Below, piece after piece: positions 31,434-56,795 of a stretch of DNA of 64,000 bases. The DNA comes from Gammaproteobacteria bacterium (GTDB lineage Bacteria; Pseudomonadota; Gammaproteobacteria; QNFE01). Position 1 is the stretch's first letter; each line of letters opens with the position of its first letter. The notes beneath the pieces were generated by a model. The model was not told the origin of the DNA and did no database searches. It saw only the letters and a list, made by a program, of their open reading frames with translations. The translations under genes and the position numbers were made by a program. Where the stretch lies: the NCBI GenBank assembly GCA_003645455.1, contig QNFE01000004.1, forward strand, positions 3,406 through 67,405, in the 5' to 3' direction.

Positions 31434-32216
31434 TTAAAAATTGACTTTGCCTTTTTTCTTGAAAATAAATTTATTGTCCGATTCTTGTTTGGCGAAAAGA
31501 CGCAATATGCTAATTAATTGATTATCTAATTTTTGTTTAGGGTTGATTTTAATTGCTGTTTTGTATGTTTTTTTCAAGATATTAAAAACTGTCATACCTG
31601 AAATTTGAATCTGGTTGGAATCGCTGGTGTTATCTATTTTTATTTTTTCATCCTGTTGTGATGTGGTTATATTTATATGCACATCTCCCAGTTGTAATTT
31701 GCTGGGGGATTCAATATTAAGCCGTAAAATATCAATATTACCAGCAATATATTTTAAACGATTTTTTTCAAGTATTATTTTTTTAATAGAAAAATGAGCC
31801 TTACCAGCTGTTGTTATTAAATCTAAATTCCAGTTACTTAATAGGTTTTGCAAAGAATTTTCATAAGTTAAGTTCGTGATCTGGGTTTGTTTGTCTTTTA
31901 TTCCGATCTTTAATTTAATTTTGCCGTTGATATAATCTCCTGTAATATTAAAGCTTGTATTCAACAACAACAAATCACCTATGTTTAACGATGTTTTGAC
32001 GTTTTCAATTCTATGTTTGTTAAAAGTTACCGCCGAGAATGAGCCGTTGAATATTGTGCCAGATGGTTGTTCTGGGATGATATTTTTTGGTATGTTTACC
32101 ATTGACATAATTTGTGTCAGCGGAATAGCCGTTATTGAAAAATAAAGCAAAGAAACCATAAATACAAACAACAAAATAATAATTTTTTTCATAGGTTTCT
32201 CAAGGTCAATAGGCAA
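31434..32216 (-). CDS. gspN: Type II secretion system protein N (putative)
   Basis: Single N-terminal TM, ~260 aa, last gene after gspM in a gspIJKLMN series. Confidence 0.45.
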   Translation of the reverse strand: MPIDLEKPMKKIIILLFVFMVSLLYFSITAIPLTQIMSMVNIPKNIIPEQPSGTIFNGSFSAVTFNKHRIENVKTSLNIGDLLLLNTSFNITGDYINGKIKLKIGIKDKQTQITNLTYENSLQNLLSNWNLDLITTAGKAHFSIKKIILEKNRLKYIAGNIDILRLNIESPSKLQLGDVHINITTSQQDEKIKIDNTSDSNQIQISGMTVFNILKKTYKTAIKINPKQKLDNQLISILRLFAKQESDNKFIFKKKGKVNF

Positions 32217-32647
32217 CTTACCATACCAGCGCTTGTTTTTTTAACAGCGATATTTTTAACGGTTATGGCATGGGTTTGTCTCATTTTTAAAATAAATTGC
32301 ATAAGCGATTTGTATTTTATGTTTTTAAATTCAAGTTTAATGCTATTTTTGCCAATTGGTTGAATTTTTGCAGGAATAGGTAGCTCCATTTTAGAAATTG
32401 TTTCATCCGTCCTTATGAGAATAGATTTATTTTTATCAATGTTTTGCGTCTTGTTTAATAAATAAGAATTGCTTTTAATGAAATTTAATGTTTGTAGGTT
32501 AGATATTAAATCATTTTTGTTTTTGCTATAATCATCAAGCAATGGCATTAACATGAAATTATAAACCACAAGTGGCACCGCAACCAACAACAAAGATATG
32601 ATTAAAATTTTTTCACGATTAGATAGATTGGAGAATTTTTTTATCAT
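32189..32647 (-). CDS. gspM: Type II secretion system protein M
   Basis: ~150 aa bitopic protein between gspL and gspN. Confidence 0.5.
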   Translation of the reverse strand: MIKKFSNLSNREKILIISLLLVAVPLVVYNFMLMPLLDDYSKNKNDLISNLQTLNFIKSNSYLLNKTQNIDKNKSILIRTDETISKMELPIPAKIQPIGKNSIKLEFKNIKYKSLMQFILKMRQTHAITVKNIAVKKTSAGMVSCLLTLRNL

Positions 32648-33828
32648 TGTTTTTTTATCCGCATTGTAACCAGAGTTTTTTTGCTTTTTTTGTCGATAGA
32701 AAGAATCTCAGATAGAAGTTTTGCTTTTTTTAGCTCTTTGTTAAAATCTCCAAGGCTGATAGGGTTATCTGTTGTAAATATAATCTGTAATTGATTGGCA
32801 TTAAATTTATACTCTTGTATTGAAAAATTTTTAATTTGTTTGCCGTTTTTTATCGTCTGGTTTAAGAGAGTTAAAAACAAACCGGCAGAGTTCATTTCTT
32901 TGATTTTAGATATTTTTTGTTGGATTTTTATAAATTTGCCAGATTTATTTTTTAAAGATGGAAATTTTGCTATGATAATTTTGTTCAACTCTTGTTCGGC
33001 TGCTTGATTTTTATTTTGAATTTTTGATAAATTTATCAAATAATTTGGAATCTGGCTTAATCCTACAATCAATAATATTATCATAGGTAATTTATAAAAT
33101 TGTATTGATTTGATAAAACTGCTTAATTCTATTTGTTTTTTTTGGATAAGATTAACAACAGAATTGGCATAACCCGCCGATGCTTCTTCTAAAAAATTAT
33201 ATTCATATGTTTTGCTATCTGTTGTTGTTTTTATTGCCGGACCACTATTTTTTAGGTTATATTGTTGGATTCCCATCTTAGGGTTGGCAGACAAAATTGA
33301 ATCTATTATAAATTCTACCGCATGATCAGGGCATACTAAGCGATATTTATCGGTGCAAACAACCATTTTTTCATCTGGCAATTGATAGAGGGTTATTTGT
33401 TCTAATAGTGGTGGAAATAAATCCCATGCTGGCACAATTACATCTAATTTTATTCCATTATTTTTATAGATTGTTACGATATGCTCTATTTTGTTATGCT
33501 CACTTACCGCGGTATTGACATTGTCCCCTACAACACTATTGATAAAATTTAAATTTTTAATGTTGTCATTTAGGCTGTCTTCTATTTTAAAGCCTATCGA
33601 GTCAATTGCCTTTTTACGATTTTTTTGGGGCAATGGTGTTTGGATAAAAGTGCAATCTGTGCCATCAGTTATCAATACAATTTTTTTACCAGATAGGGCA
33701 GATTTTAAAGCAGACAAACTGCCAATATGTGAATTTCCGGTTTTTGTTTTATAGTTTTTATCTGTTATAACATAATGAATATCATCAAAGCTGTTATTAG
33801 AATTGTATATAAAAATATAATCTGCCAA
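32644..33828 (-). CDS. gspL: Type II secretion system protein L
   Basis: 394 aa with a cytoplasmic domain, a mid TM segment and a periplasmic domain. Its position after gspK fits. Confidence 0.55.
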   Translation of the reverse strand: MADYIFIYNSNNSFDDIHYVITDKNYKTKTGNSHIGSLSALKSALSGKKIVLITDGTDCTFIQTPLPQKNRKKAIDSIGFKIEDSLNDNIKNLNFINSVVGDNVNTAVSEHNKIEHIVTIYKNNGIKLDVIVPAWDLFPPLLEQITLYQLPDEKMVVCTDKYRLVCPDHAVEFIIDSILSANPKMGIQQYNLKNSGPAIKTTTDSKTYEYNFLEEASAGYANSVVNLIQKKQIELSSFIKSIQFYKLPMIILLIVGLSQIPNYLINLSKIQNKNQAAEQELNKIIIAKFPSLKNKSGKFIKIQQKISKIKEMNSAGLFLTLLNQTIKNGKQIKNFSIQEYKFNANQLQIIFTTDNPISLGDFNKELKKAKLLSEILSIDKKSKKTLVTMRIKKQ

Positions 33829-34779
33829 TTAGTTGCCCCCTATACTTTTTGATATTGTTTTAATTTTGCCATTGTTGGCACGATGCAAAACAAGAATAAA
33901 TTTTAGATTAATTTTTTGTAAAAAAATTACAAATTTTACTTTAAAATAGTTTGATTTAACACTAAAATATTTCATTTGAGGGTTTTTATTTTTTAATAAA
34001 CTATGATTTTTTAGAGTATTGATGTTTTTATAGGGTTCCTCTTGAATCTCATCATAGATTGTTTGGACATCTTCTTTTTTCAGCATAGATAACATAGAGT
34101 GCAAAACCTCAATCTTTGTAGTGTTGATATTTATCAAGGTATCACCTGGCAAGACAGTTACAAAATCTATCATTTTTTCAAAAATTTGTTGATCAATTCC
34201 GCGAACAAGCAATAATTCACTGATATGAATCATAGGTTGGTTTGAATTTTTATAGGGTGTTTCTAAACCCAGATAATAATCACTTTCAGCTCCTCCTATG
34301 CCTGCTACCTCGGAATCCTTGTCGATTCTATCACGAATGGCTTGGATAATGTTTTTATTAATTTCAAGTTCTGCAAACAATAAATTAAGTGCGGTAAAGA
34401 TGTATGGATTGGTTTTGTTATTAGAATCCACCAATGAATTTAAATTTATTTTTCCCGATAAATCGTCAAAATCGCCAGTAAAATAACCATCGTTTGGTAA
34501 GGGATAAGCCATATTTTTAGTCTGTGCCCAGATGTCTTCTTTGGAATCAGTTTTATTTAGCTCGTGATCTTTTTTAAGAATAATATAGGCTAATGCGGTG
34601 GCTCCTTCGGCGTATTGCTGTGCTTGTTGGAATGTTAACCGATTAATTGTTTTTAAGGTTTGTTTTTGTCTGTCCGCTATCATTTTAATGGATATTGCTG
34701 ATATAATGGCACTTATGAGCAAAACCGTTAATAATGCCACTCCATTTTGTTGTTTTTTGCTTAAATATTCCATAACCAC
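33829..34779 (-). CDS. gspK: Type II secretion system minor pseudopilin K
   Basis: The N-terminal QNGVALLTVLLISAIISAISIKMIADRQ prepilin-like hydrophobic segment and ~316 aa size are typical of GspK. Confidence 0.7.
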   Translation of the reverse strand: MVMEYLSKKQQNGVALLTVLLISAIISAISIKMIADRQKQTLKTINRLTFQQAQQYAEGATALAYIILKKDHELNKTDSKEDIWAQTKNMAYPLPNDGYFTGDFDDLSGKINLNSLVDSNNKTNPYIFTALNLLFAELEINKNIIQAIRDRIDKDSEVAGIGGAESDYYLGLETPYKNSNQPMIHISELLLVRGIDQQIFEKMIDFVTVLPGDTLININTTKIEVLHSMLSMLKKEDVQTIYDEIQEEPYKNINTLKNHSLLKNKNPQMKYFSVKSNYFKVKFVIFLQKINLKFILVLHRANNGKIKTISKSIGGN

Positions 34780-36875: not shown

Positions 36876-37253
36876 ATGGCAACAATAAATCTTACCCAAG
36901 ATAACTTTACCGATACTATCAATAATAATGATATAGTTGTAGTGGACTTTTGGGCCGATTGGTGTGGTCCTTGCAAATCATTCGCCCCTGTTTATGAAAA
37001 AGTATCACAGGAGCATAAAAATGTTGTATTCGCAAAAGTTGACACCCAAGCACAACAGGAACTTGCAGGCTCTTTTAACATCCGCTCTATTCCAACTTTG
37101 ATGGTATTTCGTGAAAAAACTATTATATTCCAACAAGCCGGAGCCTTACCAGAATCATCTCTTACCGAGCTTATAACCTCTGCTACAAACCTTGATATGA
37201 AACAGGTCAAAGCAGATATCGAGAAGAAAAATCAAGAAAAAAACAAATCTTAA
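36876..37253 (+). CDS. trxA: Thioredoxin
   Basis: WCGPC active site (FWADWCGPCKSFAP). Confidence 0.85.
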   Translation: MATINLTQDNFTDTINNNDIVVVDFWADWCGPCKSFAPVYEKVSQEHKNVVFAKVDTQAQQELAGSFNIRSIPTLMVFREKTIIFQQAGALPESSLTELITSATNLDMKQVKADIEKKNQEKNKS

Positions 37254-37269
37254 AATAGGATAGTTCCTT

Positions 37270-37752
37270 ATGAAAAAATATAAAAAATGGTTATTGCAGT
37301 TTTTAATTGTTATAGTCATTTTTTTTGGTATTCGTTTTTATCAACAACAAAATCTTATCACAGGAGTTGCCCCCACATTTAACCAAAAATCTTTAAATGA
37401 TGAAAGCATAAATCTTGCAAGTTACCAAGGAGACCCAGTATTAGTGCACTTTTGGGCTAACTGGTGTCCTATCTGCAAAGCAGAGCAATCAAATATAAAC
37501 ATTACCAACGATTACTATAAAATAATTACGATTGCATCTTTTTCGCAAAGAGATGAAATAAAAAAATATGTTAGTGATAATGATTTGAATTGGACTGTTG
37601 TCTATGATAGTGGTAATTTGATCGCTAAAAAATATGGCATAAAAGCTGTGCCTGCAAGTTTTTTTGTAAATTCAAAAGGTGAGATTAAATTTACAGAAGT
37701 AGGCTATACAACTACCATAGGTTTTCTGGCAAGAATGTTTTTGTTTGATTGA
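37270..37752 (+). CDS. TlpA/ResA-like membrane-anchored thiol:disulfide oxidoreductase
   Basis: N-terminal TM plus a WCPIC active site in a thioredoxin fold (VHFWANWCPICKAE). Confidence 0.75.
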   Translation: MKKYKKWLLQFLIVIVIFFGIRFYQQQNLITGVAPTFNQKSLNDESINLASYQGDPVLVHFWANWCPICKAEQSNINITNDYYKIITIASFSQRDEIKKYVSDNDLNWTVVYDSGNLIAKKYGIKAVPASFFVNSKGEIKFTEVGYTTTIGFLARMFLFD

Positions 37753-38608: not shown

Positions 38609-39088
38609 ATGAGATTTTTAAGCATTGATCCTGGTTCTGCCATAACTGGTTTTGGTATCATAGATAGCGATGGCAAAAAATATCATTTAATAAAACAGGG
38701 CACTATTATACTAAAAAAAATAAAAGAACATCCATTAAAGTTAAAAAAAATATATTATGAGGTAAATAATCTGATTTTGGAACATCAGCCGGATGAGTTT
38801 GCCATAGAAGATGTATTTATTAGCAAAAACCCCCAGTCTGCTTTAAAGTTAGGACAGGCACGAGGGGCTGCGATTTGTGCGGCAGTTAATAATAACTTAG
38901 GGGTTTTTGAATACTTTCCAAGAATTGTTAAAAAAACAGTAGTGGGGGCAGGCTCTGCTGATAAAAATCAAGTGCAACATATGATTAAAATCCTGCTAAA
39001 TTGTAGGGCAGAAAAGATAACAGAAGATGCAGCTGATGCCTTGGCAGTTGGCATTTGCCATATTAACCATAAACGAAATATAATATGA
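38609..39088 (+). CDS. ruvC: Holliday junction resolvase RuvC
   Basis: MRFLSIDPGSAITGFGI (catalytic Asp7); 159 aa. Confidence 0.9.
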   Translation: MRFLSIDPGSAITGFGIIDSDGKKYHLIKQGTIILKKIKEHPLKLKKIYYEVNNLILEHQPDEFAIEDVFISKNPQSALKLGQARGAAICAAVNNNLGVFEYFPRIVKKTVVGAGSADKNQVQHMIKILLNCRAEKITEDAADALAVGICHINHKRNII

Positions 39089-39666
39089 TAGCGACATTAA
39101 CAGGTTTAATTGCTTCTAAAAATCCACCATTTTTGATCTTAAATGTGATGGGTGTAGGTTATGAAGTTCAAGCTCCATTATCTTCGTTTGGCAAGTGGGA
39201 GAAAGTCGTAAAAAATGAGAGTATAACAATTTTAACTGTCCATATCGTGCGTGAGGACTCCCAAGATTTATATGGTTTTGCCACAGATGATGAAAAAAAT
39301 CTTTTTAAAACTCTGATAAAAGTCAATGGTATTGGTCCTAAGATTGCCATTGGAATTTTATCCGCCAGTGGGGTTGATGGTTTTATCGCTAATATTAACT
39401 CGGCAAATATTGATAATTTGGTGTGTCTGCCGGGGATTGGTAAAAAAACAGCCCAGCGACTTATCATCGAGATGAAAGATAAACTAACAAGCAAAGCGGG
39501 CAACAGCAAACAAGAGGCAAACTTTTTAGACAAAAATTCACAGGTTATATCTGCCTTGACGAATTTGGGTTTTAAATCAAGTGTCGCCCAACGGATGTTA
39601 GCAGGAATTGATAGCAATAACAAAACTATTGATGAGATATTAAGATTAGCATTGAAAAATAACTGA
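39085..39666 (+). CDS. ruvA: Holliday junction branch-migration protein RuvA
   Basis: MIATLTGLI...GVGYEV start and HhH motifs (LPGIGKKTAQRLI). Its start overlaps ruvC. Confidence 0.9.
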   Translation: MIATLTGLIASKNPPFLILNVMGVGYEVQAPLSSFGKWEKVVKNESITILTVHIVREDSQDLYGFATDDEKNLFKTLIKVNGIGPKIAIGILSASGVDGFIANINSANIDNLVCLPGIGKKTAQRLIIEMKDKLTSKAGNSKQEANFLDKNSQVISALTNLGFKSSVAQRMLAGIDSNNKTIDEILRLALKNN

Positions 39667-39731
39667 TGATTTATTATCCGTCTGCTCCTATGAAATAAAT
39701 ACTCCTGCCTACGGTCATGATGCCAAAAAGT

Positions 39732-39828
39732 CCGTCACTGCGAACGAGCCGCGGCGAAGTGTGGCAGTCTCTTGTTGTTATTCGTATACCACGATGAGAT
39801 CGCTCCTCGCGATGACGTATTCTTTTTA
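39732..39828. repeat. MITE-like element, family 2, copy B (shorter, ~97 bp)
   Basis: CCGTCACTGCGAACGAG...GTGGCAGTCTCT...CTCCTCGCGATGACGTATTCTTTTTA has the same termini and core as 11953..12067, with a ~22-nt internal deletion. It lies where ruvB would normally follow ruvA. Confidence 0.6.
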
Positions 39829-39838
39829 TGGCTTTTTC

Positions 39839-41377
39839 TTAATCAAAAACTACTCTGAATCCTATGTCATAACTTGTCAAAGTAGGATGCAAATATCTTT
39901 TGGAGGTTAGAATTGTATTGGATTTATCAAGTGCAAAACTACCGCCCTTGATAACGGCTTGGATATTTTGTTTTGACAAATTAAAGGTAGAGGTCCACTC
40001 CGATACATTCGCCCCCATCGCATATAAACCCAGCAAAGAAATGTCGTTTTTGTCTGATTTTATATCAATGGGATGATTTATATTATTTTCTCTGCTGTGA
40101 GTTATGATAGGCGGATTATTAGAATTTGGATAAATAAATTTATGTAAATTGACACTTTGCATCCACTGCTCTGATGTCGGCAACCTGCCACCTGCAAATT
40201 TGGCAAAAGAATAAGCACAATACCAGTTAATATTTGTGATGGGTCGGCGGGGATTCTTTAATTGTTGTTGCCAATTATTAGGCTTGCACTTGTTGTTTTT
40301 TGGTTGAGATTCGTTGGCATAAAAATTTAATTTGACAAAAGTATTATTTAAAAATTTTTGATAATCTGCAATGCTTATCTCATATTTGCTGATTTTAAAA
40401 TTATTTTTTATTCTATCTTGTTTGATGATGGAGGCTGCATCCTGATAGGATAGTTGGCTGATATGTGGCAACAGAGCGGGCATTTTTGCTTGCTTTTTCA
40501 AACCTATCGTGTATTCCCCATCTGGAATTTTTATTAAATTTAAATTTGTTCCCCAGGCAGTTGTTTTTAAATTTTCATCATAAACACATCTAAACCCCAC
40601 AAAAACGGAGCGATATTTTGGATCTTCTGGGCGATAAACAGGGTTCATAGTCCAAAGTTCGGCAGGTTTTAAATATGAATTACCACCGCTTATGATAGGG
40701 TCGCCGTGAGGATATGAACCCATAGTCCACTCTGATACCATTGTAGACATATTCTCAACACCATCTGGGGTATTGTTGGCAGGGTGAGCGCCGATTTTAG
40801 CACCGGCATTTAAAATTGGGTCATCATAAACATAAGAGCTATTATCAAATTTATCACCCCAGGCATAGGTGCGAGATGTTTTACCGCCGGCAATTGCCAT
40901 CCATTCATAAGTTGCAGGTAATCTGCCACCTGTGTTGTGACAATAACTTGTAACATCATAAAAACTTATATTATTAGCGGCAACATAATTTTCACCTAAG
41001 ATTTTATGGTTTTGTGAGAGGGTTTTTGGTTTAAAATCTTGCCCTACCCCTATTACTTTTCTGATTTTATTTTTTTTGCTATATTCCATAAACTTATAAA
41101 AATCCCCTTGACGAACCTCATATTTATCAATATATATATTTTTTAATTTATAAGTTGTAGGTGGAATTGATAAGGATTTTTGTAAGATTTCTGATTTTTT
41201 AAGATAGGCAAAATTATCTAATAAAATTTTATCAATAGGGTGAATTTTTGTGGTTTTTTTATTATTACCGATTTTTATTTTTTCAATATCAATCAATAAT
41301 CCTGCAAATAAATCTGTTAATAAAAAGATAAAAAATATGAGAGTTATAGTAGCAATTGTGGCATATATTTTTTTCAT
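39839..41377 (-). CDS. Membrane-anchored protein with two tandem FGE-sulfatase (SUMF1/formylglycine-generating-enzyme-like, GldK/PorK-type) domains
   Basis: N-terminal TM. The two repeats are ...YEVRQGDFYKFM...SFYDVTSYCHNTGGRLPATYEWMAIAGG...GFRCVYD and ...YEISIADYQKFL...NWYCAYSFAKFAGGRLPTSEQWMQSV...GFRVVFD, both matching the FGE-sulfatase domain pattern. Confidence 0.65.
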   Translation of the reverse strand: MKKIYATIATITLIFFIFLLTDLFAGLLIDIEKIKIGNNKKTTKIHPIDKILLDNFAYLKKSEILQKSLSIPPTTYKLKNIYIDKYEVRQGDFYKFMEYSKKNKIRKVIGVGQDFKPKTLSQNHKILGENYVAANNISFYDVTSYCHNTGGRLPATYEWMAIAGGKTSRTYAWGDKFDNSSYVYDDPILNAGAKIGAHPANNTPDGVENMSTMVSEWTMGSYPHGDPIISGGNSYLKPAELWTMNPVYRPEDPKYRSVFVGFRCVYDENLKTTAWGTNLNLIKIPDGEYTIGLKKQAKMPALLPHISQLSYQDAASIIKQDRIKNNFKISKYEISIADYQKFLNNTFVKLNFYANESQPKNNKCKPNNWQQQLKNPRRPITNINWYCAYSFAKFAGGRLPTSEQWMQSVNLHKFIYPNSNNPPIITHSRENNINHPIDIKSDKNDISLLGLYAMGANVSEWTSTFNLSKQNIQAVIKGGSFALDKSNTILTSKRYLHPTLTSYDIGFRVVFD

Positions 41378-42993
41378 TTTTTTTGCCTACGAATTAAAAA
41401 GAAAATAGTAAAAGTTATAAATAAAATAAAATATAACCATAAATGAAATGATGATAAATAATTTTTACTATCACTTGATTTTAATATTAACTCTTGATTG
41501 TTAATTTTTAAATCATTTTCTAAGTTTTTAATATCAAGTTTATTTTTATTTATTTTGGCAAAAATATGTCCTAAGGATATATCTTCTATATTTTTGTCAA
41601 TCAAAGCTATGACTTGCCAATTATTGCGATTTTTGATTTTTATAGGCACTAATAAAATATTATTTTTAATAATCTCATTTTCAATTCCTTGATAAAAATT
41701 ATTATAGGGATATAACGATAAAGACAATAAATTATCGGCGAAAATATAAGGTTTGTTGTTTTTTTGATAATATAAATCAAAACCTCGGATGGGAACATTA
41801 AATGGTAGTTTTATAAAATTTTTGCCGCCTTTTTTACGATTATAAATCTGTAATTTTTTTTGCTTGGTTTGGCGTATTGATTTTATTTTTCGTAAAATTA
41901 GATTGACCTCTTGATTATAAATTGAGTTATTAACAAATTTTAAAGGGTCTTTTAAGTGGGCTTGCATTTGTTGTAAAATATCTTTAATGTTAAAATTAAA
42001 AAATTTATTTTTATTTTCAATCTCTTGGGCTTGATGTAAATATAACAATAAAAAATTTAACATAAATCTCTCATATGAAACCTGCGAGCTATTTAATTTT
42101 TTAAATTTTTGTTTAAAAGATAACTCGGCTTTGCCTTGCTCTCCTGCAATTTTTATTTTTAACTTTCGGTTGCTGAAACCTTTTATACCATGTTCTTTTT
42201 GTTGGCGTTTTTTAGCAAATGATTGAGTTAGTGCCTCGGATAAGGATAGGTTTTGTGAATCTCTTTTTTGTTTGCCAATATCGGATGGAATCCTATCATC
42301 AAATGGCGAGTTTTGCATTCTGTCAAAGTCAAAATCTGTATTATTTGGTAGGCTATGAGAAAAATCCGGTTTATCCTCTGTTGGTTTTTCTGTTGTTTCC
42401 GTTTGTTTGTCAAGGGTAAAATTAGTTTTTGTATTTTTTTGTTTTTTGTTTTTCAAACGAGCATTTGCCATATCCTCGCCATTATAATGCCAATGACGAA
42501 TTTTTAAGTTTTGCTCTTTGATAGCTGCCATCGTTAAATAATATAACCTGATGCTATAAATATCTGCTCTTAGCAATAATTTTTGGGGGCTTTTTAATGA
42601 CTTTAAAAATAATTCAAATTTATTGTTTTTTTGCAATAATTGATTACGAGTTATCGTTAAATTTAAATTAGGGTTAGTTTTTTCATCACCTAATATTCTA
42701 ATAAAATTATCATACATTTCAATAATAGGGGACTGTGGATTTCGTTTGTGATTATAGTCATGCAAAACCGCAGGTGATGAGCTTGGCAAATCATTGACGA
42801 TTATTTTATTTAATATGTCTTGTGCCATAACCACTTGCATATCTTTGTTTTGTTGAATTTGCACCTCGGCTTGGTGTTGTTTGACAACCAAAGATAGGAT
42901 TATTAAAATCAAAATTACTGCCACCCCATTTGCCAGAATATCTGCCAAAGCAATTCCGACAACGGATGGCAAATTTTGAGGGTTGAATTTCAT
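41374..42993 (-). CDS. Hypothetical 539-aa lysine-rich protein with N-terminal ExbD/MotB-like TM segment (with Asp) and C-terminal TM segment
   Basis: N-terminal TM VGIALADILANGVAVILILIIL, central low-complexity K/N/Q-rich region, and C-terminal TM LWLYFILFITFTIFFLI. Overlapping stops/starts indicate translational coupling with its neighbours. Confidence 0.45.
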   Translation of the reverse strand: MKFNPQNLPSVVGIALADILANGVAVILILIILSLVVKQHQAEVQIQQNKDMQVVMAQDILNKIIVNDLPSSSPAVLHDYNHKRNPQSPIIEMYDNFIRILGDEKTNPNLNLTITRNQLLQKNNKFELFLKSLKSPQKLLLRADIYSIRLYYLTMAAIKEQNLKIRHWHYNGEDMANARLKNKKQKNTKTNFTLDKQTETTEKPTEDKPDFSHSLPNNTDFDFDRMQNSPFDDRIPSDIGKQKRDSQNLSLSEALTQSFAKKRQQKEHGIKGFSNRKLKIKIAGEQGKAELSFKQKFKKLNSSQVSYERFMLNFLLLYLHQAQEIENKNKFFNFNIKDILQQMQAHLKDPLKFVNNSIYNQEVNLILRKIKSIRQTKQKKLQIYNRKKGGKNFIKLPFNVPIRGFDLYYQKNNKPYIFADNLLSLSLYPYNNFYQGIENEIIKNNILLVPIKIKNRNNWQVIALIDKNIEDISLGHIFAKINKNKLDIKNLENDLKINNQELILKSSDSKNYLSSFHLWLYFILFITFTIFFLIRRQKK

Positions 42994-43006
42994 TTTGAGA
43001 TAGTTC

Positions 43007-43516
43007 TCATTTTTTTATGACTTTTTTAATGTGGGGCGGAATGTCTTTGATATTAACAGATTTTAATAATTCTTGATTAGCTATAATCCAGCCGATAGAT
43101 ATTTTTTTGCCGGCGAATATAGCCATAAGGCAATCACGCGATTTTTTCATTGTGCCTGCTCCGCCCTCTAAAATTGCAAAAATAATTTGTTGTTTTGGTT
43201 GGGAATAAATATTTTTTGCATACGAGACAAAAGCACTATTATTTTTGCAAATATTTGCTCTTTTAACGCTTTTTTGATCTTCAATAATGTGTAATTTATC
43301 TTTAAAACTCAGGACAACAAAACCCTCTCCATCAGAGCCCCAACTTATATTATAGATGCCATCGCTGTTATCTATATCGGCTAATCGCTGGGCTGTCGTG
43401 GATTCACTAATTAGATTAAACAACAAAAACAACACCAGCAACAAAGCGAATGCACCGCCGAAAATCTCAACTATCGCATAGTTATCACCCTCGTCATTAT
43501 TGCGATATTTTCTCAT
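43007..43516 (-). CDS. ExbD/TolR/MotB-like single-TM protein (putative stator partner)
   Basis: A short cytoplasmic N-terminus is followed by a TM with an acidic residue (AIVEIFGGAFALLLVLFLLF). The C-terminal IIFAILEGGAGTMKKSRDCLMAIFAGKKISIGWI resembles the ExbD periplasmic fold. Its start overlaps the MotA-like gene by 4 nt. Confidence 0.45.
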   Translation of the reverse strand: MRKYRNNDEGDNYAIVEIFGGAFALLLVLFLLFNLISESTTAQRLADIDNSDGIYNISWGSDGEGFVVLSFKDKLHIIEDQKSVKRANICKNNSAFVSYAKNIYSQPKQQIIFAILEGGAGTMKKSRDCLMAIFAGKKISIGWIIANQELLKSVNIKDIPPHIKKVIKK

Positions 43517-44496
43517 TTTTGCAAGTTTTGCTTTTGCAGATCACAAAAAAATTGTTCCTCCTTTTTTTGTAATAAGGTTTGCAATAATGCCAAAACTACA
43601 CTCAACGATAAAGCGATTAAAGTGGTATCAAAAGCAATGCCAAGCGGGGCAATAGCGGATGCGAGATCTGAGCCCATCTGCGACAGCCCATCTCCTCCTG
43701 CTATGATTTTTTGCAAGCCTTCGGATGCCAAAGAAATCCCCAAAACCGTGCCGATAAATCCTAATAATGGAATCGCCCAGTTAATGTATTTTAAAGTTTG
43801 ATAAAAATTATTATTTTGTTGCCAGATAACCTCAACAACATCATTAAAATTGGTTTTGTTAATTTTGATTGGTGATTTTTGTTGTTTTTTCAAGGATAAT
43901 AATTTGCCAAGCAACAACAACAACCCCCAGTTGAATAACACCAGACACAATGGCGGAATTATGCCCCTATCTAACATTTTACTATTTAAAAAACTCAAAA
44001 AATCAGGCAACATATGAGATTGAATTAAAGACAGCAACAAAGCGGACAAAATAATAGCGATTGACAAAGAAAATAACAACGGCGGCCCATTTAAAAAATT
44101 ATCTAAATATTCGTTAAATACTTTATTATTTTTTTCGTCAAATAATCTGATTAGAGCAAAGTTTATCAATACACATAAAATTATCAATACCAAAGAAAAA
44201 TGGAATCTCAAATCAATTTGAATTTTATCAGTTTGAATAATATTAAACACAACATCAAAAACAAAAATTGAGGCGAATAAAATACTAAACAAAGACAACA
44301 AATTCATTGAATGTTGCCAAAATTTGTCTTGATATTTTTTTAAACTACTCACAAAAAACCAAACAATCGGCAAAATTGTCGCTATAACAATTAATGCCGT
44401 TGTAGATATCTCAAGCAATCCTGCAACAACAAAAGCCCCTGCCAGAGAGATAATTAAATTCAATCCTAAGTTTAAATACGGATATATTTTTTTCAT
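43513..44496 (-). CDS. MotA/TolQ/ExbB proton-channel family protein
   Basis: The C-terminal INWAIPLLGFIGTVLGISLASEGLQ...LASAIAPLGIAFDTTLIALSLSVV matches the MotA_ExbB signature. It has ~6 TM helices and no long cytoplasmic tail. Confidence 0.7.
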   Translation of the reverse strand: MKKIYPYLNLGLNLIISLAGAFVVAGLLEISTTALIVIATILPIVWFFVSSLKKYQDKFWQHSMNLLSLFSILFASIFVFDVVFNIIQTDKIQIDLRFHFSLVLIILCVLINFALIRLFDEKNNKVFNEYLDNFLNGPPLLFSLSIAIILSALLLSLIQSHMLPDFLSFLNSKMLDRGIIPPLCLVLFNWGLLLLLGKLLSLKKQQKSPIKINKTNFNDVVEVIWQQNNNFYQTLKYINWAIPLLGFIGTVLGISLASEGLQKIIAGGDGLSQMGSDLASAIAPLGIAFDTTLIALSLSVVLALLQTLLQKKEEQFFCDLQKQNLQK

Positions 44497-44516: not shown

Positions 44517-45479
44517 TTATACAATCATTTCAAGTCGGTTTTTGTTATCTTTAATTTTGTCTAATCTATATTGAGCGATTTTTATATATTCTTTATTAAG
44601 TTCAATTCCGATATAATTTCTATCCATCATTTTACAGGCTACGGCTGTTGTGCCTGATCCTAAAAATGGATCTAAAACAACTGCTCCTGTTTTGGTGGTA
44701 AGAGATATAAGATATTTACAGATTGATAGGGGCTTGACTGTTTTGTGGGTATTGCCTGCTCCCTTTTCTTTTTTGTTTGGTTTGCCTGTTAAAAACGCTC
44801 TGTCAATAATGGGGCTTATATTTTGAGAAGAGACAACATTCGCAGGGTGCATATTTTGATCCTTGCCGTGTTTTATAGAGGTATTTACCAACGATACATT
44901 ATGTCGCATCATATTGTTTAAAAAAGTTTTGTCAACTGGTTTTTGTGCCATGGCGATGGGCTCAAAACAGGATTTTACCTGTGGGGTTTTCCAGCCACTT
45001 AAAGTTTTTATCAATCTGTTTTTTTCAAAATCTGACATATCTAATTTTTTAATGAAATGGTTAAGGCTCATACCTTTTGGTTGGTTCATTGTGTATAACC
45101 ACATAAAACAGTCACGAATATCAAAACCTGCATCTTCTATCGCACATGCCATTCTATGATATAAACGAGGGCTTGAAAATGAAAAGAAAAATCCACCTGG
45201 TTTTAAAACCCTGTATAATTCTTCTGATATTTTTAAATACCACTTATAAAATCGCTTGCCTTGGTTTTTATCAAACTTCATACCAGCTGGCAGTGATTTA
45301 ATCGTGTGTAAATTTTTATCATTATGCACTCTATCAACATTCCATTTATTATCCATTTTATCTAAAAAATATGGTGGATCTGTCAGCACAATATCCACAG
45401 AATTTTCTTGGATATTTTTTAAAAACTCTAGTGAATCTTGATTTATTATTTTGTTTATATATTCGTTATTTTTTAACAT
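44517..45479 (-). CDS. DNA methyltransferase, beta-class N4-cytosine/N6-adenine family (DPPY then FxGxG)
   Basis: Motif IV VLTDPPYF is N-terminal and motif I VVLDPFLGSGTT C-terminal. This order indicates a PF01555-type MTase. Confidence 0.8.
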   Translation of the reverse strand: MLKNNEYINKIINQDSLEFLKNIQENSVDIVLTDPPYFLDKMDNKWNVDRVHNDKNLHTIKSLPAGMKFDKNQGKRFYKWYLKISEELYRVLKPGGFFFSFSSPRLYHRMACAIEDAGFDIRDCFMWLYTMNQPKGMSLNHFIKKLDMSDFEKNRLIKTLSGWKTPQVKSCFEPIAMAQKPVDKTFLNNMMRHNVSLVNTSIKHGKDQNMHPANVVSSQNISPIIDRAFLTGKPNKKEKGAGNTHKTVKPLSICKYLISLTTKTGAVVLDPFLGSGTTAVACKMMDRNYIGIELNKEYIKIAQYRLDKIKDNKNRLEMIV

Positions 45480-46179
45480 TGAATTTTTGCTCCAATAGTT
45501 TATATGCTTTTTTCTGTACTTCTATTGTACTTCTTAAAATTACTTTTGCATTCGCTAATTTAATTACTCTACCTTTTCTGTCATATTCCCAACGATTTCT
45601 GTCGGCTTGATTGCACTTTTGACATTGTGGAATTATGTTGCCGGCAATAAGTGGCTTTTGTGGATTCATATGGGCTTTTTGGAGTTTGGTTTTAGTTGCC
45701 GGCCAATGAAAATGAGGTTTGTTTTCAACAGAGCCACAGGTCGCACATCTGTTTTGATATTTTCTTTTTATTTCATCAAAATCATCGCCAATATCTTCCA
45801 ATCTACGGTTAGATTTAAAATCAGGATAGGGTTGTTCTAAGGTGTATAATTTGTATTCTCCTCTTTTTAAGTTTTCAACAATATTGTCTCTGCCGCCTGC
45901 GACTATCCACCAACCTTTTTGAGCCCCAAGATGTCTTGCTTGTTGCATGTCATTAGTGTTTGGATAATATTGTCTGATAAATTGAGTTAATTCGTTTTTT
46001 GATGCTACTTTTGTTTGTGGATAATTTTGAGCAAGATAGATTAAAACAAGAGCGTCTTTGGTGTAGCCTGTTTTATATTTAAGGTTAGGTAATTTTACTC
46101 CCACATCTTTTAAGAATTTACCATGGTAAGATTTGATTGTATTGTAGGTTTTATTAATAGTGCTATCTGTTAGTTTCAT
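45466..46179 (-). CDS. HNH-family endonuclease (putative Type II restriction enzyme)
   Basis: C-terminal CATCGS...H..N...CQKCNQADRNRW is a CxxC...H...N...CxxC HNH/zinc-finger nuclease pattern. The N-terminal ~130 aa is a putative DNA-recognition domain. It overlaps the downstream MTase by 14 nt. Confidence 0.65.
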   Translation of the reverse strand: MKLTDSTINKTYNTIKSYHGKFLKDVGVKLPNLKYKTGYTKDALVLIYLAQNYPQTKVASKNELTQFIRQYYPNTNDMQQARHLGAQKGWWIVAGGRDNIVENLKRGEYKLYTLEQPYPDFKSNRRLEDIGDDFDEIKRKYQNRCATCGSVENKPHFHWPATKTKLQKAHMNPQKPLIAGNIIPQCQKCNQADRNRWEYDRKGRVIKLANAKVILRSTIEVQKKAYKLLEQKFNVKK

Positions 46180-46224
46180 ATTTTTATTGTTGTTTAACTT
46201 TTAATGTTATTTTTTGTTGTATTA

Positions 46225-47640
46225 TCATTTACCAAATGTTAGTTTTTCTTTTAATAATTCGTCTTGTATTTTTACTTTATTCATTAGGTATTCCATAGGT
46301 CTGTCGCCTTTGGTTGTGTTGCAATGTCCGCATAATAATTGATAGTTTTCATAATAATCGCCGCCGCCTTTGGCTTTTGGTATTATGTGATCTATGTGAA
46401 AATCTTTGATTAAATATTCGTGGTTGCATCCTTTGCATATGCCTTTTTGTTCTTTATGTAATCTCTCTTTTATGCTGAAACTTGGAAGCTCTTTTTTAAT
46501 GTCATCTCTTTTTGGGATATCTACTCGATGAATAAAATTGCTAAATAAACCTGCATCATCGCTTAGGCGATTAACCAAAACTTCGGCGGCTTGTTTTTCA
46601 ATATCTATGCCGATCCATTTTCGGTTTAATTGTTGGGCTGCCACACAGGCTGTGGCACAACCACAAAATGGATCAAAAATTATATCACCCTCGCGACTGC
46701 TGGCTTTAATTATTCTATTTAATAAAGCTATTGGTTTTTGAGTGGGGTAGCCGGTGCGCTCGCCTCCCATAGCTCTTGGTATATCAATCCAGTTATTATC
46801 TAATGTTTTGCCATCATAATCATCAAAATATTTGCGTCGCTCTAATTTGCCATCATCTTTTATGACGATATTGCCTTTTTGATATTCCTCTTCTAACCTT
46901 TGTTTGGATAGTCTCCAACCAGATAAATGAGGGTTATTAAATCCTCGCCATGCGTAACATAAATTTGGTCTATCTCCCATTGATGGATTGCGCCAAATAT
47001 GAGCCGAATCATCATAATATCTTTTGCCTTTGTTATCAATTTTGTTGAATTTTTTAAGCATTACAGGATCATTTTCTTTGAGTTTTATCGTAGGATTTAA
47101 ATGATATTCATCACTTTTTGTATAGAATAATATAGTGTCTGTGCTGGCACCGAATTTTTTTGCTTTAAATTGACTGCCTTTCGCCCCTGTCATTCTTTGC
47201 CAAATTATTTCATTTCTAAAATTACTTTTGCCAAAAATTTTGTCTAAAACTATTTTCAAATAGTGTGAGGCTGTGGGGTCCACATGTAAATAAAAACTGC
47301 CTGTTGGTTTTAAAACTCGGTGCATTTCTATAATTCTTTGAGTCATATAAGTGATATATGCCATCATAGCTTTGCCGTGGATTCCTTCGATGGATTGAAT
47401 AAAATTAACCAAAAAAGGATAGTTGCTAAACATTTTTTCAAGATAAGATTCGTTAACATCCTCCCAACTCCACATATCAGAAAAACTCGCCCCTGCGGAC
47501 TTGCTACCAATGGGGGCAGAATAAAAACGTTTGGAATTAAAAGGTGGGTCCAAATATATTAAATCAATGCTCTCGTTATTCAAACCATTTAAAATAAATA
47601 GGTTGTCGTTGGTATATAAAGTGTTTATAAATTTATTCAT
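46225..47640 (-). CDS. DNA methyltransferase (beta-class, DPPF) fused to C-terminal HNH endonuclease domain
   Basis: IYLDPPFNS (motif IV) comes before IIFDPFCGCATA (motif I). The C-terminal CKGCNHEY...HIDHIIPKAKGG..YENYQLLCGHCNTTKG is a clear HNH motif. Confidence 0.8.
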   Translation of the reverse strand: MNKFINTLYTNDNLFILNGLNNESIDLIYLDPPFNSKRFYSAPIGSKSAGASFSDMWSWEDVNESYLEKMFSNYPFLVNFIQSIEGIHGKAMMAYITYMTQRIIEMHRVLKPTGSFYLHVDPTASHYLKIVLDKIFGKSNFRNEIIWQRMTGAKGSQFKAKKFGASTDTILFYTKSDEYHLNPTIKLKENDPVMLKKFNKIDNKGKRYYDDSAHIWRNPSMGDRPNLCYAWRGFNNPHLSGWRLSKQRLEEEYQKGNIVIKDDGKLERRKYFDDYDGKTLDNNWIDIPRAMGGERTGYPTQKPIALLNRIIKASSREGDIIFDPFCGCATACVAAQQLNRKWIGIDIEKQAAEVLVNRLSDDAGLFSNFIHRVDIPKRDDIKKELPSFSIKERLHKEQKGICKGCNHEYLIKDFHIDHIIPKAKGGGDYYENYQLLCGHCNTTKGDRPMEYLMNKVKIQDELLKEKLTFGK

Positions 47641-53594: not shown

Positions 53595-54080
53595 ATGACA
53601 AAAAACCAAACCACACAAAAATTACTCCAAAAAAGATTAAAAAAGGCTTCCAGGCATTTTACAGCATTAAAAGAATATAAGTTCTTAATAGAGCAAATTT
53701 TAATCGATAAGAATATTTACCAAGTAGATGAATACAAACAATTACAACCAGCAGACAGGGCAATATTTGATGCCTATTTAAAAAGATTTTCATCATTGCA
53801 AGATTTTCTGGGGGCAAAAATATTCCCATTGTTGCTTGATATAGCTGGTATAAATAATAACTCATTGAGCGAGGTTTTGTTATATGTTGAAAAAGAGCAG
53901 ATAATTGACAGTCTAGATAGTTGGATTGAGTTGCGAGCGATAAGAAATGAGCTAGAACATGATTATCCAGAGATTATAAGAGAGGCATTAGAGAACTTAA
54001 AATATTGTGTTGATAGTTTTGATAGAATAACTTCTTATTATAAAAATAGTGTCAATTTTTCTAATAAATACATAAAATGA
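53595..54080 (+). CDS. HEPN-domain protein (HepT-like putative RNase toxin)
   Basis: Carries the Rx4-6H motif in ELRAIRNELEHDY. At 161 aa and all-helical, it is immediately followed by nucleotidyltransferase genes. Confidence 0.6.
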   Translation: MTKNQTTQKLLQKRLKKASRHFTALKEYKFLIEQILIDKNIYQVDEYKQLQPADRAIFDAYLKRFSSLQDFLGAKIFPLLLDIAGINNNSLSEVLLYVEKEQIIDSLDSWIELRAIRNELEHDYPEIIREALENLKYCVDSFDRITSYYKNSVNFSNKYIK

Positions 54081-54370
54081 GACTATCAACAAGAATTATA
54101 AGTATTTTAAAAAATAATATCCATACCAGTTTTGGTGATGTTGAGGTATATTTATTCGGTAGTCGTGTAGATGACAACAAATTAGGTGGGGATATTGATC
54201 TTGCCATTGATACTAATATAAATAACCAAAAATTTTTAAAAAATAAGATAAAATTTGACTGCCAGATGATAAGAGCAGGTTATGATTTAAAAGTTGATTT
54301 AGTAAAATACAATCACTGGGACGATTTATTAAACAGACAAATAAAAAACGATGCTATTAAATTATTTTAA
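54077..54370 (+). CDS. Minimal nucleotidyltransferase (MNT, Pol-beta superfamily) protein, copy 1
   Basis: LFGSRVDDNKLGGDIDLAID matches the GS-x9-13-DhD NTase motif. Its start overlaps the HEPN stop (ATGA). Confidence 0.7.
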   Translation: MRLSTRIISILKNNIHTSFGDVEVYLFGSRVDDNKLGGDIDLAIDTNINNQKFLKNKIKFDCQMIRAGYDLKVDLVKYNHWDDLLNRQIKNDAIKLF

Positions 54371-54376
54371 ATTAAA

Positions 54377-54664
54377 ATGAGATTATCAAAACAAGATATA
54401 AATATTATAAAAAATACAATTCTTGACAACATAAACGATGGCAAAATTACTCTATTCGGCAGCCGTGCAGATGACAATAGAAAAGGTGGCGATATTGATT
54501 TAATGGTGGAGACAAATAAAAATATTAGTTTTGCAACTGAGCTTAATATTTTAACAAAATTAGAATTAAATGGCATTGAGAGAAAAGTAGATCTATTGCT
54601 TAAAGCTCCAAATTCAACACCACACAATATTTATAAAAAAGCGAAAAAGGGAGTACTGTTATGA
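54377..54664 (+). CDS. Minimal nucleotidyltransferase (MNT) protein, copy 2 (paralogue of copy 1)
   Basis: LFGSRADDNRKGGDIDLMVE. The N-terminus MRLSKQDINIIKN parallels copy 1 MRLSTRIISILKN. Confidence 0.7.
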   Translation: MRLSKQDINIIKNTILDNINDGKITLFGSRADDNRKGGDIDLMVETNKNISFATELNILTKLELNGIERKVDLLLKAPNSTPHNIYKKAKKGVLL

Positions 54665-55539
54665 TACAGAAACCTCCAATAACAACTGGTAAACAAAATA
54701 TACAAGATAAAATTTATACTTTAAGAGATGTTCAGGTAATGTTAGACAGAGACTTAGCTGAACTTTACGGGACTAAATCTACAAGACTCAGAGAGCAGGT
54801 TAAAAGAAATATAAAAAAATTTCCACAAGATTTTATGTTTGAACTTACTGAACCTGAAACTAATTTGATGGTATCGCAAAATGCGATACCATCAAAACAG
54901 CATTTAGGAGGCAGTTTGCCACTTGTATTCACTGAGCAAGGTGTTTCTATGCTGGCCACTGTTTTAAAAAGTGATATTGCTACACAAATAAGCATAAAAA
55001 TTATGAGAGCTTTCGTCAATATGCGAAAATTCATTTTATCTAATGCAGATATGTTTATGAGATTTGAAAGAATAGAGCATCGCATATCTTTACATGATGA
55101 AAAGTTCAATAAATTATTTCAAGCTATAGAAAACAAAGAGACCAAACCAAAACAACATATATTCTATGATGGACAAATATTTGATGCTTATCTTTATGTC
55201 CGTGATATTATAAAGTCGGCTAAAAAATCTATAAAACTTATAGATAACTATATAGACGAGAGTATTTTAGTATTATTTACAAAAAGAAATGCAGATGTAG
55301 ATATGAAAATATATACAAAAACTATATCCAAGCAATTAGAATTAGACATAAAAAAATATAATGCCCAATATCCAAAGATTGAGGTAAAAAAATTTGCTTT
55401 ATCCCATGATAGATTTTTAATCATAGATGAAAAAAAGATATATCACTTCGGAGCAAGCTTAAAAGATCTTGGCAAAAAATGGTTTGCAGTTTCAAAAATG
55501 GACATAAACTCTTTTGAACTTTTAGAGAAGTTAAAATAG
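54661..55539 (+). CDS. ORF6N (KilA-N-like) domain protein
   Basis: The N-terminal LRDVQVMLDRDLAELYGTKSTRLREQVKRNIKKFPQDFMFELT matches the ORF6N DNA-binding domain. The C-terminal half is uncharacterised. Its start overlaps the MNT2 stop. Confidence 0.65.
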   Translation: MIQKPPITTGKQNIQDKIYTLRDVQVMLDRDLAELYGTKSTRLREQVKRNIKKFPQDFMFELTEPETNLMVSQNAIPSKQHLGGSLPLVFTEQGVSMLATVLKSDIATQISIKIMRAFVNMRKFILSNADMFMRFERIEHRISLHDEKFNKLFQAIENKETKPKQHIFYDGQIFDAYLYVRDIIKSAKKSIKLIDNYIDESILVLFTKRNADVDMKIYTKTISKQLELDIKKYNAQYPKIEVKKFALSHDRFLIIDEKKIYHFGASLKDLGKKWFAVSKMDINSFELLEKLK

Positions 55540-56793: not shown

Positions 56794-56795
56794 TC

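Follow-up and report, generated by a model that had tools for sequence, protein, structure and literature searches.

A conserved four-gene cassette predicted to couple a divergent MotA/ExbB/TolQ-like channel to a tandem FGE-fold protein in the bacterial envelope

In a 64-kb stretch of DNA (contig QNFE01000004.1; hereafter the window, 64,000 nucleotides in all) from an uncultured gammaproteobacterium, positions 39839-44496 of the minus strand carry four translationally coupled genes, P1 to P4, that recur as a cassette in many other genomes. We interpret this cassette, with a probability of about 0.5, as a Ton/Tol-like inner-membrane motor that would be driven by the proton-motive force and joined to a periplasmic binding module. 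P1 (43513..44496, 327 amino acids (aa)) is a polytopic membrane protein and a distant member of the MotA/ExbB/TolQ ion-channel superfamily; P2 (43007..43516, 169 aa) has a single transmembrane (TM) segment and a predicted TolR/ExbD-like periplasmic domain; P3 (41374..42993, 539 aa) is a predicted hairpin inner-membrane protein; and P4 (39839..41377, 512 aa) consists of a signal-anchor TM followed by two tandem domains with the fold of the formylglycine-generating enzyme (FGE), the FGE-sulfatase fold. All four genes lie on the minus strand; P1 and P2 overlap by 4 nt, P2 and P3 are separated by a 13-nt gap, and P3 and P4 again overlap by 4 nt. The source is a metagenome-assembled genome (MAG), and its database proteins RLA08682.1 and RLA08679.1 are annotated as hypothetical. 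Since 72 other genomes contain homologues of each product (E 1e-23 to 1e-97) with the order unchanged, the four open reading frames (ORFs) represent real genes rather than chance. The ORFs, coordinates and junctions agree throughout with those of the initial annotation, and its description of the products is also upheld by the data given below: a MotA/TolQ/ExbB-family channel without a long cytoplasmic tail, a 169-aa single-TM ExbD/MotB-like protein, a Lys/Asn-rich protein with an Asp-bearing N-terminal TM and a second TM at its C-terminus, and a membrane-anchored protein with two tandem FGE-sulfatase domains.

The conservation of the cassette was examined by scanning 185,579 species, each represented by a single genome; at least 586 of these genomes contained a P1 relative, and the best 80 loci were inspected. 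The four genes were present in the order P1-P2-P3-P4 and on the same strand at 72 of the 80 loci, so that the synteny among relatives on which the initial annotation had made its proposal depend is seen in this gene-neighbourhood survey. Four of the remaining eight loci were cut by a contig end, with the order kept up to the break. Another two had a transposase gene of the YhgA-like or PD-(D/E)XK type directly after P1 (L015, 8844-9866; L081, 9190-10050), suggesting that these cassettes had been broken by insertion, one (L074) had P1 alone and one was without P4. More than 610 P1 homologues are present in databases, with identities of about 40-46% over the C-terminal two-thirds of the protein. 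The P3 family is sharply bounded and has no weaker tail: 1.84 billion representatives included 163 clusters (50% identity) that belong to it, and for 154 of these E was <=1e-10. Between close pairs, all four proteins diverge at similar rates. In two loci, P3 and P4 constitute a single ORF (L050, 9033-12515; L057, 9054-12584), and in the L050 fusion the C-terminal TM of P3 is followed by a short basic loop and then by the anchor TM of P4; P0339 (1118 aa) is, from its length alone, probably a third fusion of this kind. The existence of P3-P4 fusions makes contact between the two proteins likely and supports the topology proposed for them below.

The assignment of P1 to the MotA/ExbB/TolQ superfamily is based on a narrow but consistent set of similarities. 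P1 exceeded the gathering score of Pfam PF01618 (MotA_ExbB) by a small margin (24.4 versus 22.9 bits, residues 226-316), its orthologue in Vibrio thalassae scored 26.2 bits against the same model, and a precomputed PF01618 match is present in only some members of the P1 family. An ExbB/TolQ-like three-TM core occupies residues ~178-300. The whole protein has seven hydrophobic segments, four or more of which lie in a poorly conserved N-terminal extension ahead of the core, and its cytoplasmic parts are very short, with a loop of ~40 aa and a tail of ~27 aa past the last TM. An alignment of 32 homologues revealed that the C-terminal third is extremely conserved. Two motifs, IPxLGFIGTVLGIS and PLGIAFDTTLIALSLS, were invariant in sets of 32 to 81 homologues, with longer invariant forms NWAIPxLGFIGTVLGISLA and AIAPLGIAFDTTLIALSLSV. 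As a signature of the TM2-TM3 hairpin we used P-x-x-G-x-x-GTV-x-GI followed by P-G-I-A, where the last TM also contains Thr or an acidic residue; P1 carries this signature, its IPxLGFIGTVLGIS and PLGIAFDTT being aligned with SPYIGLFGTVWGIM and APGIAEAL of TolQ and with the ExbB equivalents. A comparison of the P1 profile with E. coli TolQ and ExbB in hhalign, with a sensitivity limited by the single-sequence targets, gave an E-value of ~0.007 over the TM2-TM3 hairpin only, and no PDB chain matched the profile (32 family members) at E<=1. From its sequence, P1 is a remote member of the superfamily and not an ordinary TolQ or ExbB, in agreement with the initial annotation. Since P1 is almost without cytoplasmic mass, its output can hardly be cytoplasmic.

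The only matches of P1 to defence models in PADLOC and NCBIfam were to ZorA, and these were weak (E 3e-4 and 0.013); the ZorA models scored 15.8-17.8 bits over ~70 residues of the hairpin. Like Zorya, the cassette is an accessory, horizontally spread set of genes around a divergent MotA-like channel, but unlike Zorya it lacks both the long tail of ZorA and the effectors ZorC, D, E, F and G, and it does not lie in defence neighbourhoods. The identification as Zorya was rejected: the NCBIfam model ZorA_2 reached 14.6 bits against a cut-off of 100, P1 ends 27 aa past its last TM, and P2, P3 and P4 had no PADLOC match.

P2 and P3 belong to no Pfam, NCBIfam or PADLOC family. A partner gene of the single-TM type with a carboxylate in the TM adjoins P1. 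In P3, TM1 at the N-terminus contains the motif (G)xAL(A/V)DILAN with an Asp18 that is invariant (74/74 homologues) and, like TolR D23 and ExbD D25, is placed close to the cytoplasmic end of the TM. The TM of P2 reads P-M-V-E-I-F-G-G, that is, PxxE in the register of the P-x-x-D of ExbD/TolR, and this Glu17 was conserved in 34/74 homologues, most of the rest having Ala. Residue 17 covaries between the two proteins, P2 Glu17 occurring with P3 Ala17 (33 loci) and P2 Ala17 with P3 Val17 (36 loci). The covariation of the P2 Glu/Ala switch with P3 position 17 divides the family into two subfamilies, and positions 173, 231, 242 and 309 of P1 switch in step with them. This covariation among P1, P2 and P3 could be due either to functional coupling in the membrane or to mere shared ancestry. 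When the P2 and P3 profiles were compared with each other, P2 E17 was aligned with P3 D18 (E 0.002), a result that fits the two proteins being distant paralogues.

AlphaFold2 models of P2 and P3 were built on alignments of database homologues. The periplasmic domain of P2 was modelled with a predicted local distance difference test score (pLDDT) above 90, whereas the P3 model had a mean pLDDT of 74.5, with values of 90 or above in its folded parts. According to the P3 model, TM1 is followed by a TolR-like domain (~90-183), a disordered linker rich in Gly, Ser, Pro and acidic residues (~184-276; pLDDT below 50 at residues 187-275), a confidently modelled helical plus beta domain (~277-500) and a C-terminal TM (~509-538) that ends in basic residues. 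Foldseek searches of the PDB with the P3 model returned nothing at E<=0.001, and the predicted helical plus beta domain is without a match among solved structures. The linker is of low complexity and variable length, with a median of 121 aa across the family, and P3 as a whole contains 11.9% Lys and 10.8% Asn. A C-terminal TM followed by Arg/Lys was present in every P3 homologue sampled; because of this conserved TM and its basic tail, P3 is predicted to be a hairpin whose two ends are cytoplasmic and which exposes ~470 residues to the periplasm. P2 and P3 are, by modelled fold and context only, TolR-like.

The arrangement of a channel gene beside TolR-like partners calls for comparison with the known energisers. 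AglRQS and ExbB-ExbD1-ExbD2 combine one channel protein with two TolR/ExbD-like paralogues. The cassette resembles both the Myxococcus gliding motor AglRQS, which we compared by description, and ExbD1-ExbD2 in having one channel and two TolR-like proteins, but differs from them in that about half of the P2 proteins no longer have the acidic residue, in that P3 has ~540 aa and a second TM, and in that glt genes are absent. It is like the Ton and Tol systems in that the channel gene stands beside partners with an acidic TM residue and a predicted TolR-like domain, in that a long partner has a disordered periplasmic linker, and in that the output would be periplasmic. Unlike them, it encodes a channel protein with four or more extra N-terminal helices, a minimal cytoplasmic domain and very distant similarity; the role of long transducer falls to the Asp-bearing P3 itself, which re-enters the inner membrane by a second TM; TonB_C, TolA-III, TolB and Pal are all absent; and a fourth gene, for a two-domain FGE-fold protein, is obligatory.

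These likenesses would be expected if the cassette were simply an extra TolQR/ExbBD paralogue serving TonB-dependent uptake or Tol-Pal-type maintenance, with P3 as a divergent TonB or TolA. The combination of a channel, TolR-like proteins and a long periplasmic protein with a disordered linker agrees with this explanation, as does a TonB-receptor Plug domain in 2 of the 139 nearest neighbours. We nonetheless consider it very improbable, given that no TonB_C, TolA, TolB or Pal domain or gene occurs in the cassette, that the P1 profile found no solved ExbB, TolQ or MotA chain, that P3 returns to the inner membrane and has no end domain for binding the outer membrane, that the P3 family is so sharply delimited, and that an FGE protein accompanies the other three genes. 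As candidate identifications, the Ton system was dismissed on the lack of a TonB_C match, the TM at the end of P3 and the low count of Plug-domain neighbours, and Tol-Pal on the absence of tolA, tolB, pal and ybgC/cpoB from the cassette and its conserved flanks. No TolQ, TolR or TolA was detected in the window by tblastn.

P4 matched Pfam PF03781 (FGE-sulfatase) strongly and in two stretches (E 5e-43). Its two domains (~75-268 and ~285-512) are C-type-lectin-like and predicted to be periplasmic, behind a single hydrophobic anchor TM at residues 11-29; no lipobox Cys was seen in P4 homologues. We take the catalytic Cys pair of FGE, which follows a GGS motif, to be C336 and C341 in the human enzyme. 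This pair is absent from both P4 domains, in the window protein as well as at the conserved positions of 73 homologues: domain 1 has GGN followed by SYLKPAELWTMNPVYR and domain 2 has GGS followed by FALDKSNTILTSKRY, both without Cys. P4 does have other conserved Cys pairs, and P2 has the conserved pair Cys90/Cys129; with such pairs in both proteins, a periplasmic location of P2 and P4 fits. Against more specific models, P4 remained below cut-off with EgtB (54 versus 360 bits), SenA (47 versus 420) and GldK (12.9 versus 350), the EgtB and SenA matches being partial and confined to the FGE-fold part. The match to the sulfoxide/selenoxide synthase OvsA was also weak and partial (E 4e-7), and P4 lacks the DinB domain with which EgtB binds iron. 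P4 is therefore not an EgtB orthologue, whereas the initial annotation had named a P4 of that kind as damaging to its proposal.

These data bear on whether P4 might act in the periplasm as an FGE/EgtB/PvdO-superfamily enzyme, modifying an exported substrate by oxidation while the motor only anchors, regulates or energises it. The strong Pfam match, the partial similarities to OvsA and EgtB and the presence of thiol-redox genes near some copies are what such an enzyme would lead one to expect. On the other hand, the FGE Cys pair is missing family-wide, the EgtB and SenA scores reflect a shared fold without the DinB domain, and redox neighbours occur at no more than 8 of the 72 loci, in related lineages. 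An enzymatic role of this kind is accordingly quite improbable in our judgement.

The FGE fold has precedents as a binder rather than an enzyme: Tsi3, an immunity protein of type VI secretion systems (T6SS), is a non-enzymatic example (10.1101/2021.05.21.445229), and a C-type-lectin-fold 'FGS' sensor domain has been proposed to sense invaders (PMC8195603). P4 resembles such proteins (Tsi3, the 'FGS' sensors and the variable proteins of diversity-generating retroelements (DGRs)) in having the fold without catalytic residues and presumably binding at the envelope. It differs from them in that its domains are in tandem behind a TM anchor and coupled to a putative motor, and in that no T6SS effector, STAND NTPase or DGR reverse transcriptase is adjacent.

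A second precedent, raised in the initial annotation, is the Bacteroidota GldKLMN/PorKLMN core of gliding and type IX secretion (T9SS), in which an ion motor is likewise encoded together with a non-catalytic FGE-fold protein and a periplasm-spanning partner. The parallel stands as a formal analogy but not as homology, given the GldK score and the missing lipobox: P4 is anchored in the inner membrane by a TM, unlike the outer-membrane lipoprotein of the Gld system, and the cassette has no outer-membrane ring partner. A proteobacterial counterpart of GldKLMN/PorKLMN that drives secretion or gliding could draw on this analogy, in which ion motor, periplasm-spanning partner and FGE-fold protein occur together, and on nothing further; there was no match to GldL, GldM or GldN, and the conserved flanks hold no outer-membrane component, sprA/sov-like gene or T9SS cargo gene. 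We regard such a counterpart as scarcely credible.

In the mechanism that we propose, P1 would form an ion-conducting ring, perhaps a pentamer by analogy with motors of the '5:2' kind, and the N-terminal TMs of P2 and P3 would lie in its pore as an axle, P3 contributing the proton-accepting Asp and P2 the second helix (Glu or Ala). P2 and P3 would probably form a heterodimer, as the two-paralogue systems AglQ/AglS and ExbD1/ExbD2 suggest. Proton flow, if it occurs through P1, would bring about rotation or conformational cycling of the N-terminal module of P3. The far end of P3 would be fixed to the same membrane through the C-terminal TM, beside the P4 anchor. Because P3 is tethered at both ends, the linker (~90-180 residues) would take up the movement and become strained or wound. 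Force would then be passed to the C-terminal periplasmic domain of P3 and to the two lectin-like domains of P4, which would bind a ligand in the envelope or periplasm (a glycan, peptidoglycan or a protein). Since P1 offers no cytoplasmic domain to act on, the work must be periplasmic.

Several observations count against this interpretation. Models of ExbD/TolR (Pfam PF02472 and NCBIfam) matched neither P2 nor P3 at E<=1, and in hhalign comparisons with E. coli TolR, limited in sensitivity by the single-sequence target, the two profiles gave E-values of 0.05 and 0.29. Since about half of the P2 family has lost the acidic residue, the place of P2 inside the ring is uncertain, and it could lie at the periphery instead, as TonB or TolA does. 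As P3 is anchored at both ends and cannot turn freely, the rotary picture may not apply. Neither an outer-membrane partner nor a ligand was identified, and P4 may have catalytic activity after all.

The carriers of the cassette are marine bacteria and overwhelmingly MAGs of sponge symbionts from several phyla. Of the 80 loci examined, 78 came from MAGs. Sponge symbionts were named in 16 of the 80 titles (Ca. Porisulfidus, Poriferihabitaceae, Spongiihabitans, and Iophon and Hymedesmia symbionts), and Spongiihabitans and Porisulfidus have been described as 'known sponge symbionts' (PMC12988363). A further indication comes from the isolate names, which for 48 of the 80 follow the pattern used in Aquatic Symbiosis Genomics sponge assemblies. 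The other bins (IRC, COS, STY, SB06xx, PNG, LS_SOB, HK1 and Langseth) are presumably for the most part sponge-derived as well. By label, the carriers are Gammaproteobacteria (the majority), Deltaproteobacteria, Thermodesulfobacteriota, Nitrospirales, Spirochaetales and Alphaproteobacteria; the occurrence of this architecture in a gammaproteobacterium, which had at first been considered unexpected, is thus the usual case. Several carriers are closed chromosomes of 1.5-2.1 Mb, and one, V. thalassae CECT 8203 (L076), is a cultured organism, so that the function of the cassette is directly testable.

Copies from different phyla but from the same kind of host were compared (L046, L050 and L057 versus L028, L049 and L062). 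All four proteins of a Nitrospirales-labelled copy were 65-77% identical to those of gammaproteobacterial copies, and a Thermodesulfobacteriota-labelled copy was 68-71% identical to a Poriferihabitaceae copy, both of which have the P3-P4 fusion. Barring binning errors, cross-phylum identities of 65-77% point to horizontal transfer of the whole unit. In the best 80 of at least 586 loci, the association with symbionts and the cross-phylum spread suggest a niche-adaptive role in sponge- or host-associated life. A more specific reading, which we put forward tentatively as possible rather than probable, is that the cassette is a horizontally shared 'symbiosis machine' of animal-associated, chiefly sponge-associated, bacteria. 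It would be a proton-powered winch acting on a periplasmic lectin-like module, and would remodel or probe the envelope in response to host or community molecules such as sulfated glycans, host lectins or incoming toxins.

Outside the four genes, little is shared among the loci. No common fifth gene emerged from the 72 complete loci, the best flanking cluster being present in 8 of them, and the nearest neighbours are heterogeneous (TPR proteins, MsrA, CcsA, dehydrogenases and kinases), those encoding TPR proteins, MsrA, CcsA and kinases being lineage-specific. PADLOC matches were found for 3 of the 139 nearest neighbours at these loci, all of them Ser/Thr kinases, and no P2 relative was found in IMG/VR, the INPHARED phages or the PLSDB plasmids. 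In the window itself, a restriction-modification (R-M)-like triad on the minus strand (44517-47640) lies directly upstream of P1. It encodes a 320-aa N6/N4 DNA methyltransferase, a 237-aa protein and a 471-aa methyltransferase that has an HNH nuclease fused at its C-terminus; the 237-aa protein, which has only weak zinc-finger and PDC-M01B matches, is possibly the endonuclease. The first two triad genes overlap by 14 nt, and the methyltransferase gene ends 20 nt ahead of P1 on the same strand, a spacing that makes read-through from the R-M genes into P1 possible. The adjacency reported in the initial annotation is therefore real, but R-M linkage is not a property of the cassette: given the absence of common flanks, the scarcity of defence neighbours and the lack of phage or plasmid copies, the cassette is a self-contained chromosomal module and the R-M genes are peculiar to the window.

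The neighbourhood data also bear on a possible role against invaders at the envelope, in which P4 would detect, in the periplasm, some part of a phage, a T6SS effector or envelope damage and unplug a proton channel formed by P1 and P3, so that the membrane potential collapses in an abortive response, or would neutralise an invader protein directly. MotA-like channels do serve defence in Zorya, with whose ZorA models P1 has its weak matches; FGE-fold immunity proteins and proposed invader sensors are known, as cited above; the R-M genes stand close upstream in the window; and the cassette moves between phyla. Sponge symbionts are, moreover, rich in defence genes. Yet the neighbours of the cassette are mostly housekeeping genes, with the three kinases as the sole PADLOC matches, P2, P3 and P4 matched no PADLOC model, there is neither a cytoplasmic effector nor a ZorA-type tail, and the phage, plasmid and IMG/VR collections hold no P2 relative. 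Among close relatives P4 is also no more divergent than P1, unlike a receptor in an arms race. An anti-invader function is therefore unlikely, and we retain the interpretation of the cassette as an envelope motor with a periplasmic binding module.

No description of the cassette was found in the searchable literature or in four profile libraries. The literature searched likewise contained no pairing of MotA, ExbB, TolQ or ExbD with FGE/SUMF1 and no report of such a pairing from sponge symbionts, and a paper on MotAB evolution (PMC12505986) mentions neither FGE nor sulfatase. Since the tested defining features of each were lacking, the cassette is not a member of the Ton, Tol-Pal, Zorya, GldKLMN or FGE-enzyme groups. 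This supports the initial annotation in its proposal that the cassette is an undescribed envelope system coupled to a proton motor and that it differs from TonB-ExbBD, Tol-Pal, the flagellar stator and Zorya. Ion-driven motors of the MotA/ExbB type are known for few processes, namely flagella, Ton uptake, Tol-Pal, gliding, T9SS and Zorya, and every further set of partners has brought to light another use for this engine. What sets the present cassette apart is the combination of P2 and P3 without a family, a domain unmatched among solved structures, a putative doubly tethered transducer and an obligatory lectin-like FGE-fold partner. It is a candidate niche-adaptive trait in one of the oldest animal-microbe symbioses, and if the idea of a 'symbiosis machine' were true, it would represent a new functional class of motor, in which the axle is a TolR-like heterodimer and the transducer is self-tethered.

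Downstream, the cassette converges on ruvA. A terminator-like hairpin followed by a T-run (39730..39745, minus strand), found by a consensus scan only, lies ~95 nt past the P4 stop codon and is likely to mark the end of the operon where it meets ruvA, in a region where the count of terminator-like sites does not exceed that in shuffled sequence. The genes ruvC and ruvA occupy 38609-39666. As had been noted initially, ruvB does not follow them, and a tblastn search with E. coli RuvB as the query detected it nowhere else in the 64-kb window. The block had also been described as an accessory island. The variable context and cross-phylum similarity of the cassette speak for this description, but local signatures do not: no convincing boundary repeats, adjoining integrase, adjacent tRNA or GC shift was seen at the block, the GC content of which is 31.2% compared with 33.8% for the window.

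Periplasmic thiol-redox genes lie near some copies of the cassette. The window has a thioredoxin and a TlpA-like gene (36876-37752), V. thalassae has DsbD (L076, 1685-3574), and MsrA and CcsA were found at up to 8 and at 4 loci, respectively; with such small numbers and related lineages, these neighbours may be due to chance. In V. thalassae, the cassette is directly preceded on its own strand by a GGDEF-EAL gene (L076, 5136-7448), of the kind involved in cyclic di-GMP turnover. In the window, an identical 20-nt string occurs in the start regions of P4 and P1 (41363-41382 and 44482-44501), both proteins beginning with MKKIY, and is probably a coincidence in an AT-rich genome. The local GC content falls to 0.28-0.29 at 32001-34000 and 54001-58000, compared with a window mean of 0.34, and the first of these dips covers genes called I/J/K/L of a type II secretion system (T2SS) on the source contig.

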